In this document: piece by piece, positions 3,323 through 27,647 of the stretch | How the letters are laid out: every line of letters starts with the position of its first letter | How positions within the stretch are numbered: position 1 is the stretch's first letter | IMG/VR virus record: IMGVR_UViG_3300024988_000002 | Coordinates: 1 to 63,699 of that record | Origin: a virus | Taxonomy: Duplodnaviria > Caudoviricetes | Reading direction: 5' to 3' (one strand) | Length of the DNA: 63,699 nt | Translations under genes and position numbers: made by a program | The notes under the pieces: generated by a model | Told to the model about the DNA's origin: nothing | Databases searched by the model: none | What the model saw: only the letters and a program-made list of their open reading frames with translations

Positions 3323-4360
3323 TTAAGACCGGACGCGCCCCTCGTTGCCTGCGGCGATCATGTCCGCTTCGAGCCGTGCCCAGTCGTTGTCACGACCAGC
3401 CCAGAGCCCGCGTCGGCGATCCGCGTAGTTCTTCGAGATTTGCGCGCGTGTGTAGATCGGCTTTTCCGCGGGCACATCGGATTGACCCGGTGCCGGCCTT
3501 GCCCTGCCAGGAGATGCGAGCGACCCCAGATCCATCGCAGGCTGTCGTGGAGCTGCCGGGGCCGGTGACGGTGCCGACAAATCCTGCTGACGCTGCGAAG
3601 TCGGGATCGTGCTACCCGTGGCCTTCGCTTCCGTGAGGAAGTCTTTGAACATCTGCACCACCACAGCGGCGTTCGCGGCTTGGTAGGCTTCGTTCAACAT
3701 CTGACGCCTAACCTGGCCAGTGTAGATGTTTCGTATAGACAGCCAGTGCGCAAACTCGGGGCTCCGATTGACGGCAACCCAGTTCGGAATTTTCTCCGCG
3801 AGCGCGGTCTGAATTTCGCGCTGAGCCGTTGTAACGACTCGCTTTTTCAGTTCGCTGTTCTCGTTACGCAGCGCGTCCAATTCAGGCTGAATAGCCTCTC
3901 GCGCGGCGCGTTGCGTCAGGTCGATCAGCTCGTGGCCGTAGGTGTCTTCGTCTTCCGGCGTGATCAACTTTGTGTGAGGTTGAGGATTATTCCGCGAGTC
4001 AGTCCGCGGCTGCGACGCATTTCGTGCGAGCAGCGCCTGCGTCTCCTGCAGCTCGCGTGCAAGCTGCGCGTTGATCTCGGACAGCTCGCCGTTCTGCTGC
4101 TGCGACGCTTTCCAACGCCCCTGCATCGACAGGAATTTCTGTTTGTACGAGTCGGAGTTCTCGTCTTCGGCGGGAGCCGCGTGGTGCGGCGCCGGTTCGG
4201 GCGCGGGCGCGGGCGCGGGTTCTGGCGCAGGTTCGGGCGCCGGCTCGGCGTAGACCTGCTTGTGGAGCGCGTCGGCGTTGTCGCCCTGTTCTCGGATATG
4301 CTTGGGGAGGACGACGCTCGGGTCGACCGAGCCGTCTGCGAGATGCTGTAGTTCTGCCAT
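3323..4360 (-). CDS. Capsid scaffolding/assembly protein
   Basis: Pro/Ala-rich N-terminus, coiled coil, PNWVAVN..PEFAHWL and C-terminal EGRV; immediately upstream of the capsid gene. Confidence 0.75.
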   Translation of the reverse strand: MAELQHLADGSVDPSVVLPKHIREQGDNADALHKQVYAEPAPEPAPEPAPAPAPEPAPHHAAPAEDENSDSYKQKFLSMQGRWKASQQQNGELSEINAQLARELQETQALLARNASQPRTDSRNNPQPHTKLITPEDEDTYGHELIDLTQRAAREAIQPELDALRNENSELKKRVVTTAQREIQTALAEKIPNWVAVNRSPEFAHWLSIRNIYTGQVRRQMLNEAYQAANAAVVVQMFKDFLTEAKATGSTIPTSQRQQDLSAPSPAPAAPRQPAMDLGSLASPGRARPAPGQSDVPAEKPIYTRAQISKNYADRRRGLWAGRDNDWARLEADMIAAGNEGRVRS

Positions 4361-19699: not shown

Positions 19700-19954
19700 T
19701 CATGCGACCTGTTCCCGGGGCTCTCGCGCGGCACCCGACTTCGGCGGCGGGGAAGTGGAAGCGTGCACGGCGTCGATGGCGCGGCAGAGGCGCGTGCTCT
19801 GCGCCACAAACTCGATGATGCTCTCGCGGTCGCACCGCAGCCGCAGTCGCCGGTATGCGGTGTCGAACTCGTCGGCGACGGCATGCAGGTGCATCACAGC
19901 CGTGGAGGGGGGCTGGGTCCGCACGATCTCGCGGGCTTCGAGCAGCAGGTTCAT
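19700..19954 (-). CDS. Hypothetical protein
   Basis: 84-aa ORF just downstream of the 25-bp element. Confidence 0.5.
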   Translation of the reverse strand: MNLLLEAREIVRTQPPSTAVMHLHAVADEFDTAYRRLRLRCDRESIIEFVAQSTRLCRAIDAVHASTSPPPKSGAAREPREQVA

Positions 19955-19967
19955 GCCGCGATCTCAG

Positions 19968-19992
19968 GGCGAGATAGTTGCGGTTTTCTTAA
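19968..19992 (-). promoter_or_regulatory. 25-bp repeated element (copy 2), candidate late promoter
   Basis: Identical to 10788-10812. Confidence 0.55.
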
Positions 19993-20441
19993 TGCGTTCT
20001 TCGGTACTCGCGGTCGTATTCATTCTTGCATGGCTTGCAATAATTCGGGCCGGGTGGCTTCGCGCCGCCACACTTCGGACATTTCAAAATCGGGCCGAGC
20101 GACCGCGGCCGCGCTCCTGCGCGTCGTCGCCTCTCGCGCTGGTACTCGTTGAAACACTTCGCGCAATATGCTCGGCCGACCTTGTAGTCTTTTTCAGCGC
20201 CGCACTTCGGGCAACGATCTCGAAGTCGATCGTTGTATTTTGGGTTCTGTTCCCGGATCAGCTTCCATTCAAGTCGCTCCGCCGTTGCACGGTCTGCGAT
20301 CTCAGTCGTGTTGACCTTTGCAACTTCTGTGAACCACGCCTTTTGATAGGCGTGCTCTGCAAGTCGGCGCCCCCAATTCTTGGTGCGGCCGACGTAGAGC
20401 AGTTCGCCTGTTTTGCTGAGCAACGCATATACGGTGTACAT
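19989..20441 (-). CDS. GIY-YIG endonuclease with two C-terminal zinc ribbons
   Basis: TVYAL...LLYVGRT...RL.EH, E..LI...NP.YN; two CPKCG...YC..C repeats. Confidence 0.85.
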   Translation of the reverse strand: MYTVYALLSKTGELLYVGRTKNWGRRLAEHAYQKAWFTEVAKVNTTEIADRATAERLEWKLIREQNPKYNDRLRDRCPKCGAEKDYKVGRAYCAKCFNEYQRERRRRAGARPRSLGPILKCPKCGGAKPPGPNYCKPCKNEYDREYRRTH

Positions 20442-20617
20442 GCAATGACGATATAGGTTGGTACCTTACGAGATTATTGTTCGGGGTCTTTTCGAAAAAT
20501 ACCCCCTACAAATTTCAGAAGGGGGTCTCGCGAAGCGAGACAACGGGGCCCCGTCCAAGTACCCCCGGAGGGGCACAAGGGCGAGACCGTCGCAGTCTCT
20601 CACGTCTGCCGCGTCGG

Positions 20618-20650
20618 GGCCTCAAGGTGACACGGTTTCACCTTGAGGCC
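20618..20650. other. Perfect 13-bp stem hairpin downstream of 20658-20837
   Basis: GGCCTCAAGGTGA-CACGGTT-TCACCTTGAGGCC; no U-tract. Confidence 0.5.
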
Positions 20651-20657
20651 GCGGGGA

Positions 20658-20837
20658 TCACTTGTCGATTGTGGCGTTCAACGAGACCTTGACATCGCCA
20701 AAGTTTGAGAAGCCGCTCGTTGATGCCAGAAGGCGCGTCTTGCCGGACTTGGACTCCTTAGCCGCTTCGCGCGCCGCCTTCGAAGTGTCAATCACCAAGG
20801 TGAGAATATCGCCCTTCATTTCGCCTTTGACGTTCAT
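20658..20837 (-). CDS. Small hypothetical protein (59 aa)
   Basis: MNVKGEMKGDILTLVID...SKSGKTRLLAST.G...VSLN; GAGGAG RBS. Confidence 0.7.
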   Translation of the reverse strand: MNVKGEMKGDILTLVIDTSKAAREAAKESKSGKTRLLASTSGFSNFGDVKVSLNATIDK

Positions 20838-21039
20838 GGTAACTCTCCTCAGAGTTGCAACCGCCGGACCATCCGGCCGGTTCGCTTTCGGCGCGTCGGG
20901 GCCGTCTCGCGCACGCGTCGCGCGAGCGTAAGCGAGCGGAATGTGTGCGAAGAACGCGCGCATCACGCGCGAGCGCGCACGTAAGGAGCGCGCAGGATAA
21001 GTCCAGGAAGCCTGTTCCTGAGCCCTCACAAGGTTAAAC

Positions 21040-21660
21040 CTTTTCAAGGATTATATTCATAAAAGGCGTAATGGCAAAATGCCAGTGCCTTAATTTGGTC
21101 ACACTCTCAGGTGGCCGGGCGCGCGGTTTCGTGATCGTGGAACTTTGAAACAAAATTTCGGGGCGCTGGCAATTGTTGTGGCATTTAGCCGGCAGGGGAG
21201 GTGGGGCAAAATATAACCTAACTTCAATGGGTTAGCTTTTTCTATTGTATCATTGTACCTTTTTGGGCGAGATAAACGGCAAAATGGCACTGATTTTTTG
21301 GCCTCGCCCTAGGGTCGGCATTGAGGAAAAAATGGTCAGGGAGACCCCCACTTCTGCTTATTTGGAATTTTTTCAAAATATGACATTATTTCAATGACTT
21401 AGTTTTTTTGTGTCTTTTTCAAGGTGGCACTTTCACAATTTCGCCACACTCTCACCTCCCCGAATTTCGTCCCCTAGGATTATCCCTCTGGCATTTGGGC
21501 ATTTAGGCATTTCGCCATTTTCCAAAAATTACTTCACGACATTATCACGTCTCTGTGAGCTGAAAATGAACATCTGTTAATCTTAGTGGCTTTTTTAAGA
21601 TGCCAAGGTGTTCTGGCATTGTTCCTCAATTCCTGACCATTAAGATACACCCCAGTTCCA
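21040..21660. promoter_or_regulatory. AT-rich divergent intergenic region (candidate origin, promoter region or genome end)
   Basis: Largest non-coding, AT-rich stretch at the strand switch; clustered GGCA(A/T/C) motifs including a 4 x 8-bp array at 21489-21520. Confidence 0.65.
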
Positions 21661-21780
21661 TCTTATTCAGTCCTGTGCCGGCACATGGGGCGCCGCGACG
21701 CGGCGATTTTGCGCCGCGGCTTCTCCTCGACGAGGAGCGGCTGAGCGGCAGCGAAACCCACTCTGAGGAGAGCAAGGAAA

Positions 21781-22167
21781 ATGACCTCATACACGAAGAA
21801 GTTGTACGAAATCGCCCCCTCTGCCACACGCCAGATCCGCCGCAGAGAGCTGCACGATTACCGTTGGGGCGGCAGCACCAGAAACGTCACCTTGGCCAGT
21901 TTCGGAGTGGAAGTTGCAAAGGCTGCGCCCGCCATGGCGGGCGCAGCCTTTGGTCAACGTCTCACGTCACCTGCGCTCACGGCGTTCTACGTCAAGTCGC
22001 AGGGCTATCCGGCGAAGGTCATCCACGCTGCCGACAGTTTCGCTGCGCGGCGTGAATACGCCGACCACTACAAGGTGCCAGTCACGCATGTGACCGCGGT
22101 TATGCGGGGCCAACGCAGCGCAAGCGGAGCCAGCGCAAGTGCGGCTCGCTCGTTACCGTCGCGGTAA
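21781..22167 (+). CDS. Early hypothetical protein
   Basis: First plus-strand ORF with AAGGA RBS; its stop codon is part of a TTACCG palindrome. Confidence 0.6.
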   Translation: MTSYTKKLYEIAPSATRQIRRRELHDYRWGGSTRNVTLASFGVEVAKAAPAMAGAAFGQRLTSPALTAFYVKSQGYPAKVIHAADSFAARREYADHYKVPVTHVTAVMRGQRSASGASASAARSLPSR

Positions 22168-22184
22168 ATCGGGAGGGCACTGAC

Positions 22185-22517
22185 ATGGCACTCTCCGAAA
22201 AAGCCGCAAGGTCGAAAGACCGCAGCTTCAAAATTCCTGACCTGCAACATCGTCACTTCGCGTTCATTGCAGGGTGCATCCGAGAGATACCCACACCGTC
22301 GGCGCGGGTTGAAGCGACGGAAGCGTTCGACGGTTACCTCTGCCGCAGCAACAGCGCGTTCGACAGCTATCGGTTCAGGGATGCCTGTAATTGCGCTGCC
22401 GACAGCATGACGTTGGAAGAGCTCGACCTTGCGATCGCCCACGCCACGTATTGGCTCGACCACTTGCAGCAGGAACGTCTGGCCCGCGGTATTGCCGAAC
22501 AGAAAGCGGAGGGCTGA
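22185..22517 (+). CDS. Early hypothetical protein
   Basis: GGAGG RBS; RHFAFIA...NSAFD..RF..AC motif. Confidence 0.65.
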   Translation: MALSEKAARSKDRSFKIPDLQHRHFAFIAGCIREIPTPSARVEATEAFDGYLCRSNSAFDSYRFRDACNCAADSMTLEELDLAIAHATYWLDHLQQERLARGIAEQKAEG

Positions 22518-22519
22518 GC

Positions 22520-22792
22520 ATGAGCGAAGAGCAAACCACTTTCACCTTTCACAGCGATCCAAGCCATGGCTGGCTTGAGGTTGATTGGACTGACCTCAAG
22601 CGGCTCGGGCTCAACCCGACCGATTTCAGCCGCTACAGCTATCGCAACGGCAACACGTTCTACCTGGAAGAGGATTGCGACGCGCCGAAGTTCATAGCGG
22701 CCTACGAAACCAAGCACGGCCGCAACTCGTTTCGGTTCGAAGAACCATTCGAGGAAAGCCACTTCATTCGCAATCTGCCGAAGATCTACTAG
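22520..22792 (+). CDS. Hypothetical protein (DPxHGWL...YLEEDCD family)
   Basis: GGAGG RBS; HSDPSHGWLEV and YLEEDCDA motifs seen in phage/plasmid early regions. Confidence 0.75.
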   Translation: MSEEQTTFTFHSDPSHGWLEVDWTDLKRLGLNPTDFSRYSYRNGNTFYLEEDCDAPKFIAAYETKHGRNSFRFEEPFEESHFIRNLPKIY

Positions 22793-22843
22793 GGCGAAAC
22801 CGGCGCAAGCCGGTCTGACGGTGGTGCCGTTACTGATGAGCCC
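22792..22843 (+). ncRNA. Hammerhead ribozyme, type II
   Basis: GGGC-GAAA-CCGGC(GCAA)GCCGG-UC-UGACGG(UGGUG)CCGUUA-CUGAUGA-GCCC: all core nucleotides and three stems present; GUC cleavage site at 22813-22815. Confidence 0.88.
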
Positions 22844-22958
22844 ATTCGTTCCGTTAACAAATTTCACAAGCATGTGAGTCTGTACGTTTTCATCGCACCG
22901 ACTCTTAACGCTTCGTTTTCGACCTGCGCTTCGTTGCGCCAATGCTGAGGAGCAACAC

Positions 22959-23339
22959 ATGCCGAGATACATCGTCGAAGAAATTTCACCGCACAGAGTT
23001 GCGTGCCGACGTGTTGTCGATGCCGACAACGAGACCGCTGCCTTGGATGCGTTCCGCCGCGGTGAAGGTGCCAAGGTGGAAGGCTATCCTGTTATCGGCG
23101 AGCGCATCAGCGCCGCCACGCCACGCATCATCGCCGAGACTGACGACACCGTGTTGGTGCAACTCACACAGCGCGAACTCACGTTGCTGCGGGTGGCGTG
23201 TTTGGGCCGGCTCGACCGCATTGTCGCCAAGGCGGACAGCGGCGAGCTGATGGAGAGCTACCAGGAAACCAAGGAACTGCTCGACGGCAAGCTGAAAATA
23301 GCTCGCCGCGATCTGTTCAAGAAAACAGGGGAGGGCTGA
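22959..23339 (+). CDS. Early hypothetical protein
   Basis: GAGGAG RBS; 126 aa. Confidence 0.65.
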   Translation: MPRYIVEEISPHRVACRRVVDADNETAALDAFRRGEGAKVEGYPVIGERISAATPRIIAETDDTVLVQLTQRELTLLRVACLGRLDRIVAKADSGELMESYQETKELLDGKLKIARRDLFKKTGEG

Positions 23340-23567
23340 TGTTTGCAGTAGGGCTGAGGACGGATTTGTTCCTGATCGCGACGGACAACGCCACTTGTTA
23401 CGAGGTTGTGGCGAACCGCTACTGCGACATTCGCTGGCTTTATCGCAAGCACAAGCGCGAGCTGCGCGAGGCCCAGGCGGACCGGCCGGGGATGCTGTTT
23501 GCAGCGTTCGCTGCCGGCATGTCGTGTGGCGTGCTGCTCACGATCGTCGTCACTGGTGGTGTGTACC

Positions 23568-24041
23568 TTGGCTGAGCTGAGCGAAAGCCTACGGCAGCGG
23601 ATCAGAGAGCGCCCTGATTTATGGCGAGAGGTTTGCGTGCTCTCGTTAGAACTATTGGAGGGCACGAACGAGCACGTCGACGCGGTGCTCGCGTTGTACC
23701 GCAACCCGGCATCAACGAAGGCGCAGTTTAGCGCCGCCGCCCACTCCGCCGCCCACTACGCCGCCCACGCCTACGCCACCGCCCACTCCGCCGCCCACTA
23801 CGCCGCCCACGCCGCCTACGCCACCGCCCACTCCGCCGCCCACTACGCCGCCAACGCCGCCGCCCACGCCGCCGCCGCCTACGCCGCCGCCCACGCCGCC
23901 GCCAACGCCGCCGCCAACGCAATCGTAGCCGTCAAAGGTGACAAGGTGGAACGGTTCATTGCTGAACTCGAATTGTTGGTGAGGTTCGCGCCCCAACAAA
24001 CGCACGACCGAGAAGAAGGAGACCAACCAGAGAATGATTAG
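23568..24041 (+). CDS. Ala-rich low-complexity repeat protein
   Basis: Likely TTG start; central AHSAAHYAAHA(A)YAT repeats. Confidence 0.6.
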   Translation: MAELSESLRQRIRERPDLWREVCVLSLELLEGTNEHVDAVLALYRNPASTKAQFSAAAHSAAHYAAHAYATAHSAAHYAAHAAYATAHSAAHYAANAAAHAAAAYAAAHAAANAAANAIVAVKGDKVERFIAELELLVRFAPQQTHDREEGDQPEND

Positions 24042-24414
24042 CGTTATGAAGCCGAAACTATCGACGTGCTGGTATTGCGAGCGCCCGCAGAGCGCCGCTG
24101 CATGGCGCAACTCCCGTGCCGTATGTGCCGCCTGTGACAGGCTGATGGCGCACGGTGTGATTTGCATCGGCGTTAGTTCGCCCGTGGCGGGCGACACGGT
24201 GGTCGACAAGTCTTACCGCGACGGTAATTGGTGCGTGCTGAGCTTCGCCGAGTACGCGCGCCGCATCGGTGCCGAACCGCCGCAGGAACGGCACGCCTAT
24301 ATCGAAGCCGCAAGGTGGCAACGTGCAGGCTTGCCGAAGTTCGGCAAGCACGGCGCGAGCCATCTCAACACGCCCATCGAAGACGACTGGAACGATGCCA
24401 AAGACGTCGCTTGA
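24034..24414 (+). CDS. Hypothetical Cys-containing protein
   Basis: CWYC...CAAC; AAGGAG upstream. Confidence 0.55.
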   Translation: MISVMKPKLSTCWYCERPQSAAAWRNSRAVCAACDRLMAHGVICIGVSSPVAGDTVVDKSYRDGNWCVLSFAEYARRIGAEPPQERHAYIEAARWQRAGLPKFGKHGASHLNTPIEDDWNDAKDVA

Positions 24415-26501: not shown

Positions 26502-27647
26502 ATGAACATCAACCAAGCATTCGTTCAAACCAAGCGGCTTCACGAGAGTGGCCAAGCCGTGTTGCTCGTGTCCGGCTCCGGCATGGGCAAGAGCCAGGGG
26601 ACTGCATCCTATGCGAAGTCGTGGGTCGAAGAGGGCAAAGCGAGCGGCATCAAGCGCGGCTACTCCATCACCTTTCTCGCCACGCATACGCCGCCTGATG
26701 TTGTCGGGTATAAATTCAAGGGCGAGCGGGACATCATTGTGGACGTCGATGCCGACGGCAAGCCTGTCACAAAGAAAGTTACTGTGGATGACGCTTCTTG
26801 CCCGCTGTGGTATATTTCCACGGAAGGTAAGCCAGCCTTCTGCTACGACGAGTTCATGATCGTGTTCGACGAGTTCGGCCAGGCCGAGCTTGACGTGAAG
26901 CGCAGTGCTGCCGAGATCGCGCTGTCGGGTGGTACACCGCCGTGGTACGCGCCGAACCACCGTTGCATCATGCTCACCAACGAAGGCGCGCGCTACGGCG
27001 TCTCCAAGACGTTCGATTTCATCATCGCACGTCAGTCCCGCATCGAGATCAAGCCGGACATCGAGGCCGCGCTGCTGCACATGGACAAGCCGTATCTGCA
27101 CCGCGGCCGGCAGTGGCAGGTGATGGGCGTGACCAAGGCATGGGCGGCGGCGAACCCGACTGCGCTGTTCGAGAACGAGCCTGAGCAGCAAGGGCCGTGG
27201 TGCAACCCGCGCCAGCTCTATGCCTGCGACCGCTATCTGCAACTCACGTTTGCGGCGACCGGCAAACAGGATGTGGACCCGGAAGCGTTGGAAGTGCTGG
27301 CGGGCACCATCGGCATGCCGGCCACAACGTCGCTGGTTTCGCATCTGCAGTTCAGGCTGCAACTGCCGAGCTATGACTCGGTCGTTGCCGATCCGACCGG
27401 CACCGAGGTTCCGAGCAAGGCGGACCTGCAGATGCTGATGGCCTACGAGCTGTCGAGCTACGTCAAGCCGCAAGACCTGGGCTCTGTCGTCACCTACATG
27501 GAGCGACTGCCCAAGGACATGGCGATCACTTTCGTGTCGTCGCTTCTACGGCGTGATTACGCGCAGATGATCAACGTGCCTGCGATGCAGGCGTGGATTT
27601 CACGCAATGCGGCGCTGGTGAGCGTGATCAGCTCGCTCGCGCACTAA
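26502..27647 (+). CDS. AAA+ ATPase (MoxR-like)
   Basis: Walker A SGSGMGKS, Walker B IVFDEF, sensor TN, NPR motif; AAGGAG RBS. Confidence 0.8.
   Translation: MNINQAFVQTKRLHESGQAVLLVSGSGMGKSQGTASYAKSWVEEGKASGIKRGYSITFLATHTPPDVVGYKFKGERDIIVDVDADGKPVTKKVTVDDASCPLWYISTEGKPAFCYDEFMIVFDEFGQAELDVKRSAAEIALSGGTPPWYAPNHRCIMLTNEGARYGVSKTFDFIIARQSRIEIKPDIEAALLHMDKPYLHRGRQWQVMGVTKAWAAANPTALFENEPEQQGPWCNPRQLYACDRYLQLTFAATGKQDVDPEALEVLAGTIGMPATTSLVSHLQFRLQLPSYDSVVADPTGTEVPSKADLQMLMAYELSSYVKPQDLGSVVTYMERLPKDMAITFVSSLLRRDYAQMINVPAMQAWISRNAALVSVISSLAH

Follow-up and report, generated by a model that had tools for sequence, protein, structure and literature searches.

A very probable compact type II hammerhead ribozyme flush with a stop codon in a complete phage genome, and its possible part in dividing a polycistronic message

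What lies directly after the stop codon of a small open reading frame (ORF) in the virus record IMGVR_UViG_3300024988_000002, and what could it do to a message that runs on into the next ORF? The record is a complete virus sequence of 63,699 base pairs (bp) with direct terminal repeats (DTR), and was analysed over its whole length (hereafter, the window). A preliminary description, made from the letters alone, had placed a type II hammerhead ribozyme at 22792–22843 on the + strand. The site is not explained by chance, and we hold with high confidence that it is a true hammerhead ribozyme. The full explanation, in which a compact type II ribozyme processes the transcript and caps the ends that it makes, would in our estimate hold with a probability of roughly two in three.

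Direct reading of the sequence revealed every part of a hammerhead, and the coordinates, the type II topology and the cleavage site after C22815 given in the preliminary description are all correct. The parts are given below, where "compact" denotes a sub-form of type II hammerheads and R1 a model of that sub-form, both described further on.

22792..22843, + strand: the whole hammerhead, its core complete, stem II open and stems III and I closed by loops
22791, + strand: the A of the TAG stop, adjoining stem II on its 5' side; a conserved position, with A in 37 of the 39 compact examples
22792..22795, + strand: 5' strand of stem II (11.4 to 11.1), from sequence, fold and model alignment
22796..22798, + strand: core G12 A13 A14, from sequence, aligned to the core by the Rfam model and R1
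22799..22814, + strand: stem III hairpin from A15.1 to U16.1, 6 bp with a GCAA tetraloop at 22805–22808
22815..22816, + strand: predicted cleavage point, 3' of C17, placed by the hammerhead consensus (GUC, then stem I) and by the Rfam and R1 alignments
22816..22832, + strand: stem I hairpin, 6 bp including one G-U pair, with the loop UGGUG at 22822–22826
22833..22839, + strand: core C3 U4 G5 A6 U7 G8 A9 (CUGAUGA), from sequence and the Rfam and R1 alignments
22840..22843, + strand: 3' strand of stem II (10.1 to 10.4), from sequence and fold, 4 bp, with G10.1-C11.1 adjoining the core
22844, + strand: A on the 3' side of stem II, shared by 26 of the 39 compact examples

From 5' to 3', the RNA runs through the 5' strand of stem II, GAA, the stem III hairpin, C17, the stem I hairpin, CUGAUGA and the 3' strand of stem II, and the combination of an open stem II with loop-closed stems I and III is the type II permutation. 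Stems III, II and I comprise 6, 4 and 6 bp, respectively, with no mismatch, and the pairs adjoining the core (A22799-U22814, G22840-C22795 and U22816-A22832) are all standard under the acceptance rules of PMC3088659. One base, G22792, is common to the TAG stop codon (as its last base) and stem II (as its first). The minimum free energy (MFE) fold of 22785–22850 is exactly the hammerhead three-way junction, at -24.8 kcal/mol, and the computed energies of its parts are -10.8 (stem III hairpin), -6.3 (stem I hairpin) and -5.9 kcal/mol (4-bp stem II duplex).

The chance tests used a descriptor that requires GAAA, stem III, U-H, stem I, CUGANGA and a closing stem II. It matched exactly once when both strands of the window were scanned, and 1000 dinucleotide-preserving shuffles of the whole window yielded 3 loose matches and 0 with stems as long as the real ones. 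The Rfam model RF02276 (Hammerhead_II) aligns end to end at 22792–22847 with 30.6 bits, which corresponds to E values of 1.3e-4 on a slice of 251 nucleotides (nt), 0.033 on the whole window and 7.8e-6 per genome. The preliminary description had proposed a search with the Rfam type II models as a check, and its outcome is formally negative, the gathering threshold of RF02276 being 37 bits. At E ≤ 1 over the whole window, Rfam returned only the hammerhead and a weak small RNA match, and no second hammerhead was detected in the window by descriptors for types I, II and III, by Rfam or by R1.

The low Rfam score raises the question of which hammerheads the model represents. We collected further candidates with a pattern that fixes the core letters only; it retrieved at least 131 stretches from viral contigs, and 80 loci were taken for analysis. 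These loci contain 86 pattern matches, 77 of which fold as type II hammerheads (covering 71 of the 80 loci), compared with 11 of 1720 in a control with the variable inserts shuffled. Four of the nine non-folding matches resemble hammerheads with one mismatch, and the remaining five resemble chance matches. Two architectures are evident among the pattern loci: an Rfam-like form with a stem II of 2–3 bp and a long stem I whose loop pairs with the 3' tail, and a compact form with a 4-bp stem II and a stem I hairpin of 17–18 nt. The compact form counts 39 distinct examples, including the site in the window and one further site (at locus L007, described below).

We built R1 from 37 aligned compact examples, with the window and L007 excluded. 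R1 scored the window site at 61.0 bits (E = 3.5e-15), the next best among the 25 matches listed having 11.9 bits, and it separates compact sites (>60 bits) from background (<14 bits). In the 37-sequence alignment, 99.5% of cells were paired, double changes occurred in 13 of 16 pairs, and 0 of 500 shuffles reached the observed covariation; the pairing and covariation counts are partly circular because the sequences had been pre-selected for pairing, which weighs against the reading, and the comparison of 77 of 86 with 11 of 1720 is the less circular evidence. Given its R1 score, the window ribozyme is a clear member of a compact sub-form that is poorly represented in the Rfam seed. The RF02276 model is dominated by the pseudoknotted form, and since R1 gives 61.0 bits here and 64.3 bits at L007, the sub-threshold Rfam scores reflect the make-up of the seed and not a defect of the motif.

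In six compact examples (L061, L077, L086, L119, L120 and L125), stem II is followed directly by a hexamer that is the complement of CUGAYG, the opening six bases of the core. It could form a core-sequestering hairpin, either as a possible off-switch or as a refolding step after cleavage.

To what extent the ribozyme belongs with the gene in front of it can be judged from relatives of the upstream 90-amino acid (aa) ORF, 49 of which were found in viral contigs (loci L002–L050). RF02276 was run over 47 records carrying a homologue of this ORF and matched one, G006 (36.1 bits); R1 found no ribozyme besides L007, the corresponding locus of G006, in the 49 loci, and the descriptors for types I, II and III otherwise gave only loose, probably chance, type III matches there. 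G006 is a 64,094-bp DTR phage with a terminase 37% identical to that of the window and no match to the window's primase-like protein. Its ribozyme (L007 3278–3331) has the compact form and starts 1 nt past the TAA that ends the ORF homologue (53% identity over 70 residues). It scores 64.3 bits with R1 and, at 36.1 bits, also falls under the 37-bit threshold of Rfam. Between L007 and the window, the three stems differ at every variable pair yet keep the pairing. A compensatory syntenic copy in a phage with a 37% identical terminase implies selection for the hammerhead fold, and that two phages with little else in common have this ribozyme form behind this gene speaks for a function. The gene and the ribozyme may have travelled together or may have met twice. 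Like the window, G006 has a single hammerhead. With the core, the stems, the R1 score of 61.0 bits and this syntenic copy with its compensatory changes, the identification of the site as a type II hammerhead is strongly supported.

The two loci share a further detail. The hexamer that forms the 3' strand of stem I has a second copy at 22851–22856, 7 nt past stem II, where it could compete with stem I, and it is used in the RNAfold MFE structure of the cleaved 3' product. The hexamer also occurs in the 3' tail of the L007 ribozyme (3334–3339), where it can pair with loop I over 5 bp. The sharing could be due to chance, to common ancestry or to an alternative fold after cleavage. A separate observation at L007 concerns the next gene (3377–4267, + strand, record G006), 45 nt after the ribozyme: it is an anti-restriction gene of the ArdC type (ArdcN PF08401 and a zincin-like peptidase, PF18818).

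The surroundings of the ORF itself are variable. None of ten neighbouring window ORFs was matched in the 49 loci of its relatives. A hairpin stem of at least 7 bp lies within 45 nt of the stop codon in 19 of 41 distinct relatives without a hammerhead (under a strict contiguous-stem rule), RNAfold revealed further bulged hairpins after the ORF stop, some followed by U-runs as in intrinsic terminators (L003, L027, L034, L036 and L042), and in the remaining relatives the next ORF abuts the stop. With its unrelated neighbourhoods and frequent hairpin or terminator next to it, the 90-aa ORF family looks like a moron, to judge from gene order and predicted folds. The hairpins after the ORF in these relatives are in line with the ribozyme being an element that forms 3' ends and marks a boundary, which is only suggestive given that the hairpin count comes without a background rate.

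In the window, the ribozyme is flanked by + strand ORFs of a complete DTR phage record, and the upstream ORF is validated by its 49 homologues. The immediate neighbourhood is as follows (RBS, ribosome-binding site).

22520..22792, + strand: upstream ORF, 90 aa, with its TAG stop at 22790–22792; a hypothetical protein with homologues in many phages
22844..22958, + strand: spacer of 115 nt, including the hexamer copy at 22851–22856 and the RBS GAGGAG at 22947–22952
22959..23339, + strand: downstream ORF, 126 aa, with its ATG start at 22959 and the RBS GAGGAG at 22947–22952

The placement was compared with that of the class, using 85 type II hammerheads (83 from the pattern loci, the window and L007). 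An ORF on the same strand ends within 150 nt upstream of 73 of the 85, and in 58 of these 73 the distance between the end of its stop codon and the first base of stem II is -2 to +6 nt. A same-strand start lies within 250 nt downstream in 78 of the 85, at 37 nt or less in 64 of the 78. By these upstream and downstream counts, the class lies on the coding strand between cistrons, where it typically takes up the space from a stop codon to an RBS. The window fits the class on the upstream side, its stop overlapping stem II by one base. No publication on stop-codon-flush placement or on a functional test in a phage was found, in a search largely without subscription journals and supplements. Some contigs carry two to four type II hammerheads in a row (L082, L106–L108, L126/L127, L129/L130, L074/L075, L077/L078 and L120/L121), spaced by a few hundred to 1500 nt, with four about 300 nt apart in L082; this is the known clustered arrangement.

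Given this arrangement, what would the ribozyme do? We propose that the rightward gene block is transcribed and that the RNA would then fold into the three-way junction and cleave itself 3' of C22815, which would separate the message of three small upstream ORFs (the last being the 90-aa ORF) from the downstream message. The upstream product would keep its stop codon and 23 nt and would finish with the stem III GCAA hairpin and C22815, the latter carrying a 2',3'-cyclic phosphate. The downstream product would begin at 5'-OH-U22816, a base that is already part of the stem I helix. With only the weak 4-bp stem II to hold them, the two products should separate. Hairpins at RNA ends and non-standard end chemistry slow bacterial exonucleases and the 5'-end-dependent RNase E. 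With ends capped by hairpins, the two parts of the operon would decay and be translated independently while transcription continues, and the element would act as an intercistronic processing site and stabiliser without stopping RNA polymerase. We infer the steps of this scheme, namely + strand transcription, cleavage, dissociation of the products, end protection and an effect on expression; position and strand only suggest calling the transcript early. The earlier suggestion that the ribozyme self-processes the mRNA, so that the first three genes are no longer tied in stability to those downstream, is the standard published hypothesis, and it fits the ORF map.

A wider generalisation is possible, and we offer it tentatively. 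Type II may be favoured between phage genes as the only hammerhead topology in which both new ends lie inside intramolecular hairpins, with a weak stem II of 2–4 bp as the only joiner. Set flush with stop codons and interchangeable with terminators or hairpins, it would provide a defined, protected 3' end after a moron-like gene without stopping the polymerase, possibly under control of the terminating ribosome, and the compact sub-form would be a distinct and abundant punctuation mark.

Several observations weigh against the preferred explanation. No Rfam entry reached its gathering threshold in the window, this site included. Taken alone, the energy of the junction fold is ordinary (z = -1.7), being matched by 12 of 200 shuffles. 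A hammerhead is present in only 1 of the 47 records with an ORF homologue, so the comparative support at the exact locus rests on one relative. The next start is at a distance of 115 nt, whereas the class usually has stop, ribozyme and RBS closely packed, and this gap leaves room for a promoter or other element that escaped our searches. The window also lacks a pseudoknot between loop I and the tail: at most, UGG (22822–22824) could pair with CCA (22842–22844) over 3 bp, in competition with the two outermost pairs of stem II. Across the compact class, complementarity between loop and tail is no better than with swapped tails (means of 3.87 and 3.71, in a crude comparison whose loop window included stem bases). 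The available text of PMC3088659 reports that the type II examples tested there depended critically on the loop I-tail pseudoknot to cleave fast. Because there is neither a pseudoknot nor an excess of loop-tail complementarity, the speed of the window ribozyme at physiological Mg2+ is uncertain.

A different tertiary contact may take the place of the pseudoknot. According to the same text, most type II hammerheads carry a loop I-tail pseudoknot of at least 4 bp, and many hammerheads are without one. The first base of loop I is U in 37 of 39 compact examples, which U22822 matches, and the window has all three conserved positions (U22822, A22791 and A22844). A contact of the U-A type between the loop U and the A residues flanking stem II, instead of a pseudoknot, is a reasonable guess from this conservation. 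In L007, by contrast, loop I can pair with the tail over 5 bp.

Other explanations share the ribozyme and differ in its effect. It may serve as a boundary that ends the transcript of the moron-like gene, leaving a downstream 5'-OH RNA that is unstable or poorly translated, with the next gene expressed mainly from a promoter in the spacer and read-through expression dampened as the net effect. The recurrence of the 90-aa ORF family in unrelated contexts (0 of 10 neighbouring window ORFs matched in 49 loci), the hairpins behind it in 19 of 41 relatives, together with the bulged ones and their occasional U-runs, and a gap of 115 nt that is atypical beside the 64 of 78 at 37 nt or less would all suit such a boundary. 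The 5'-OH product of the glmS ribozyme is reportedly degraded by RNase J1 in Bacillus, a fate of the kind that this account needs. The required promoter, however, finds no counterpart in the sequence: no + strand sigma-70-like promoter was detected in 19800–24200, no motif of the spacer recurs in the genome as that of a phage-specific promoter would, and the spacer has no significant fold. The hairpin count, moreover, has no control from other small phage ORFs, and the ArdC gene of G006 starts 45 nt after its ribozyme with an RBS of its own, which leaves no room for a promoter. We regard this combined account as rather unlikely. Distinctly unlikely, in our view, is a gating by translation, in which the terminating ribosome prevents folding by covering stem II (its 5' strand) and some of stem III, so that the RNA is cut only when the upstream ORF is untranslated and the fate of the mRNA is linked to its translation. 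It would make sense of the base shared by the stop codon and stem II (G22792), of the 58 of 73 upstream stops that end -2 to +6 nt from stem II and of the A that precedes stem II in 37 of 39 compact examples, and regulated cleavage is raised as a possibility for phage hammerheads in the available text of PMC3088659. Genome compaction, or a conserved flanking A that fits UAA, UGA or UA-G, nevertheless explains the flush placement equally well, and hammerheads can cleave during transcription, ahead of the first ribosome.

Two further explanations deny the element a role in the message. It could be an inactive relic or a chance look-alike that has the right letters, no useful cleavage rate and no role, as its sub-threshold Rfam score, the missing pseudoknot and its single copy in the genome might suggest; some candidates in the available text of PMC3088659 were likewise uncleaved in vitro. 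Against this, 0 of 1000 shuffles match the site, the independent model R1 gives it 61 bits, there is no core deviation and no mispair adjoining the core (the acceptance criteria in that text), and the compensatory syntenic copy in G006, a phage with a terminase only 37% identical, implies that the fold is under selection, making a relic very unlikely. It could also be part of a circular RNA, satellite or retroelement that excises a unit-length RNA through hammerheads, their classical role in viroids and satellites; circular or spliced products were considered for prophage arrays in PMC3088659, and its available text reports that none were detected. Excision needs two cleavage sites, the 63.7-kilobase (kb) genome has a single hammerhead of any topology, and no repeats or reverse transcriptase were found near the ribozyme, so we consider this origin extremely improbable. 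Transcript processing with capped ends remains the explanation that we prefer.

The genome around the site is organised in two blocks. The - strand carries the structural and packaging genes (terminase, portal and adaptor proteins, internal virion protein), and the + strand block (about 21.6 to 46 kb) opens with small ORFs and goes on to replication genes (DNA polymerase, helicase, primase-like protein and nucleases). Three + strand ORFs follow the AT-rich divergent region (21600–22055, 22185–22517 and 22520–22792), and the ribozyme site follows the third. The AT-rich region, at 21050–21600, separates the leftward and rightward blocks (GC about 0.54 in 20–22 kb and about 0.61 overall) and contains two sigma-70-like sites, both on the - strand (21077–21050 and 21394–21367); the promoter of the rightward block was not located in the 19800–24200 interval. 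In the spacer (22844–22958), no promoter-like or terminator-like site was detected on the + strand, the fold is not significant (z = -0.5), and no motif is repeated elsewhere in the genome.

Functional annotation of the neighbouring genes yielded little. Pfam was blank for all 11 neighbouring ORFs searched and PHROGs for 9 of 10, the lone PHROG match being an ATPase ORF at 26502–27644. The upstream 90-aa ORF matched no Pfam or PHROG family, and its nearest clusters in ESM Atlas, which have up to 501 members, consist of hypothetical proteins of phages; in one of them, 21% of the members carry DUF7007. The downstream ORF had no Pfam or PHROG match and ESM Atlas gave nothing usable for it, and an antisense ORF at 22367–23074 had no family match. 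The window has no tRNAs, and its primase-like protein had no relative in viral contigs. A blastn search of 22100–23400 against GenBank phages returned a single weak match, confined to the ORF. The phage is present in wastewater and bioreactor communities. A search for sequencing runs that contain the region listed 20, none of them an RNA run. Contigs from four of the runs (X16, X17, X19 and X20) are identical to the window over the ribozyme where they cover it, showing neither variants nor joints nor ends.

How does the site compare with known systems? RiboJ insulators reportedly work in a related way, a hammerhead cutting the transcript, leaving a 5' hairpin and decoupling downstream expression from upstream sequence; they are said to be synthetic designs derived from a type III satellite hammerhead and placed in 5' untranslated regions, unlike a natural phage element. 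The terminators and stabiliser hairpins found after other members of the 90-aa ORF family occupy the same slot and likewise leave an upstream mRNA that ends in a stable hairpin. Unlike a terminator, the ribozyme would form the 3' end by cleavage while downstream RNA is still made, so the resemblance is one of working and not of family.

The closest comparison is with RF02276 itself (clan CL00010; Perreault et al. 2011, PMC3088659), whose available text describes type II hammerheads as common in bacteria and flanking prophage genes and proposes that they cut long phage transcripts into mRNAs of gene or operon length. With the members of this family the window ribozyme shares the identical core, the closing pairs A15.1-U16.1 and G10.1-C11.1, the GUC triplet, capped stems I and III, a short open stem II and a coding-strand site between phage genes. 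It differs in its score of 30.6 bits (<37), in being without the loop I-3' tail pseudoknot of at least 4 bp that most type II members have, in its 4-bp stem II (2–3 bp in the consensus) and in its stem I, a short 6-bp hairpin with a 5-nt loop. The prophage clusters in the same text, such as the Agrobacterium tumefaciens trio around ardA, are also intercistronic and have the same proposed transcript-cutting role; unlike these clusters, which flank single genes, the window and G006 have one ribozyme per genome and no array, and unlike the ardA trio, the window has a hypothetical downstream gene, 115 nt away. That text places ardA directly downstream of hammerheads in Legionella and Agrobacterium, an association that the ArdC gene after the G006 ribozyme echoes, and a census of hammerheads next to anti-restriction genes (ArdC here, ardA there) may be worthwhile.

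Evidence that such predictions can be active comes from Desulfovibrio vulgaris, where, according to the available text of PMC8782182, three predicted type II hammerheads near phage-like genes cleaved in vivo, as detected by cyPhyRNA-seq. The same text gives 2',3'-cyclic phosphate and 5'-OH as the ends left by hammerhead cleavage. These cases are of the same type as the window ribozyme and lie near phage-like and hypothetical genes, and they show that bacterial type II hammerheads found by prediction can be active in cells; they belong to another organism and other loci, the likeness being one of type and setting. As far as its available text goes, a 2019 review (PMC6765202) repeats the transcript-cutting proposal and calls the purpose of these ribozymes still undefined, and PMC10651486 concerns an engineered hammerhead only.

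The arrangement and the transcript-cutting idea were already published in 2011, and the window adds one more well-supported natural type II hammerhead and leaves current understanding unchanged. Its position fits the long-standing, still hypothetical idea that phage ribozymes punctuate polycistronic mRNAs. At 30.6 and 36.1 bits, the compact form without a pseudoknot escapes the Rfam threshold, so annotation pipelines will pass over sites of this kind. As a single-copy ribozyme in a slot where other phages have a hairpin or a terminator, the site is a simple natural test case, which could show whether cleavage stabilises, insulates or down-tunes the neighbouring cistrons.

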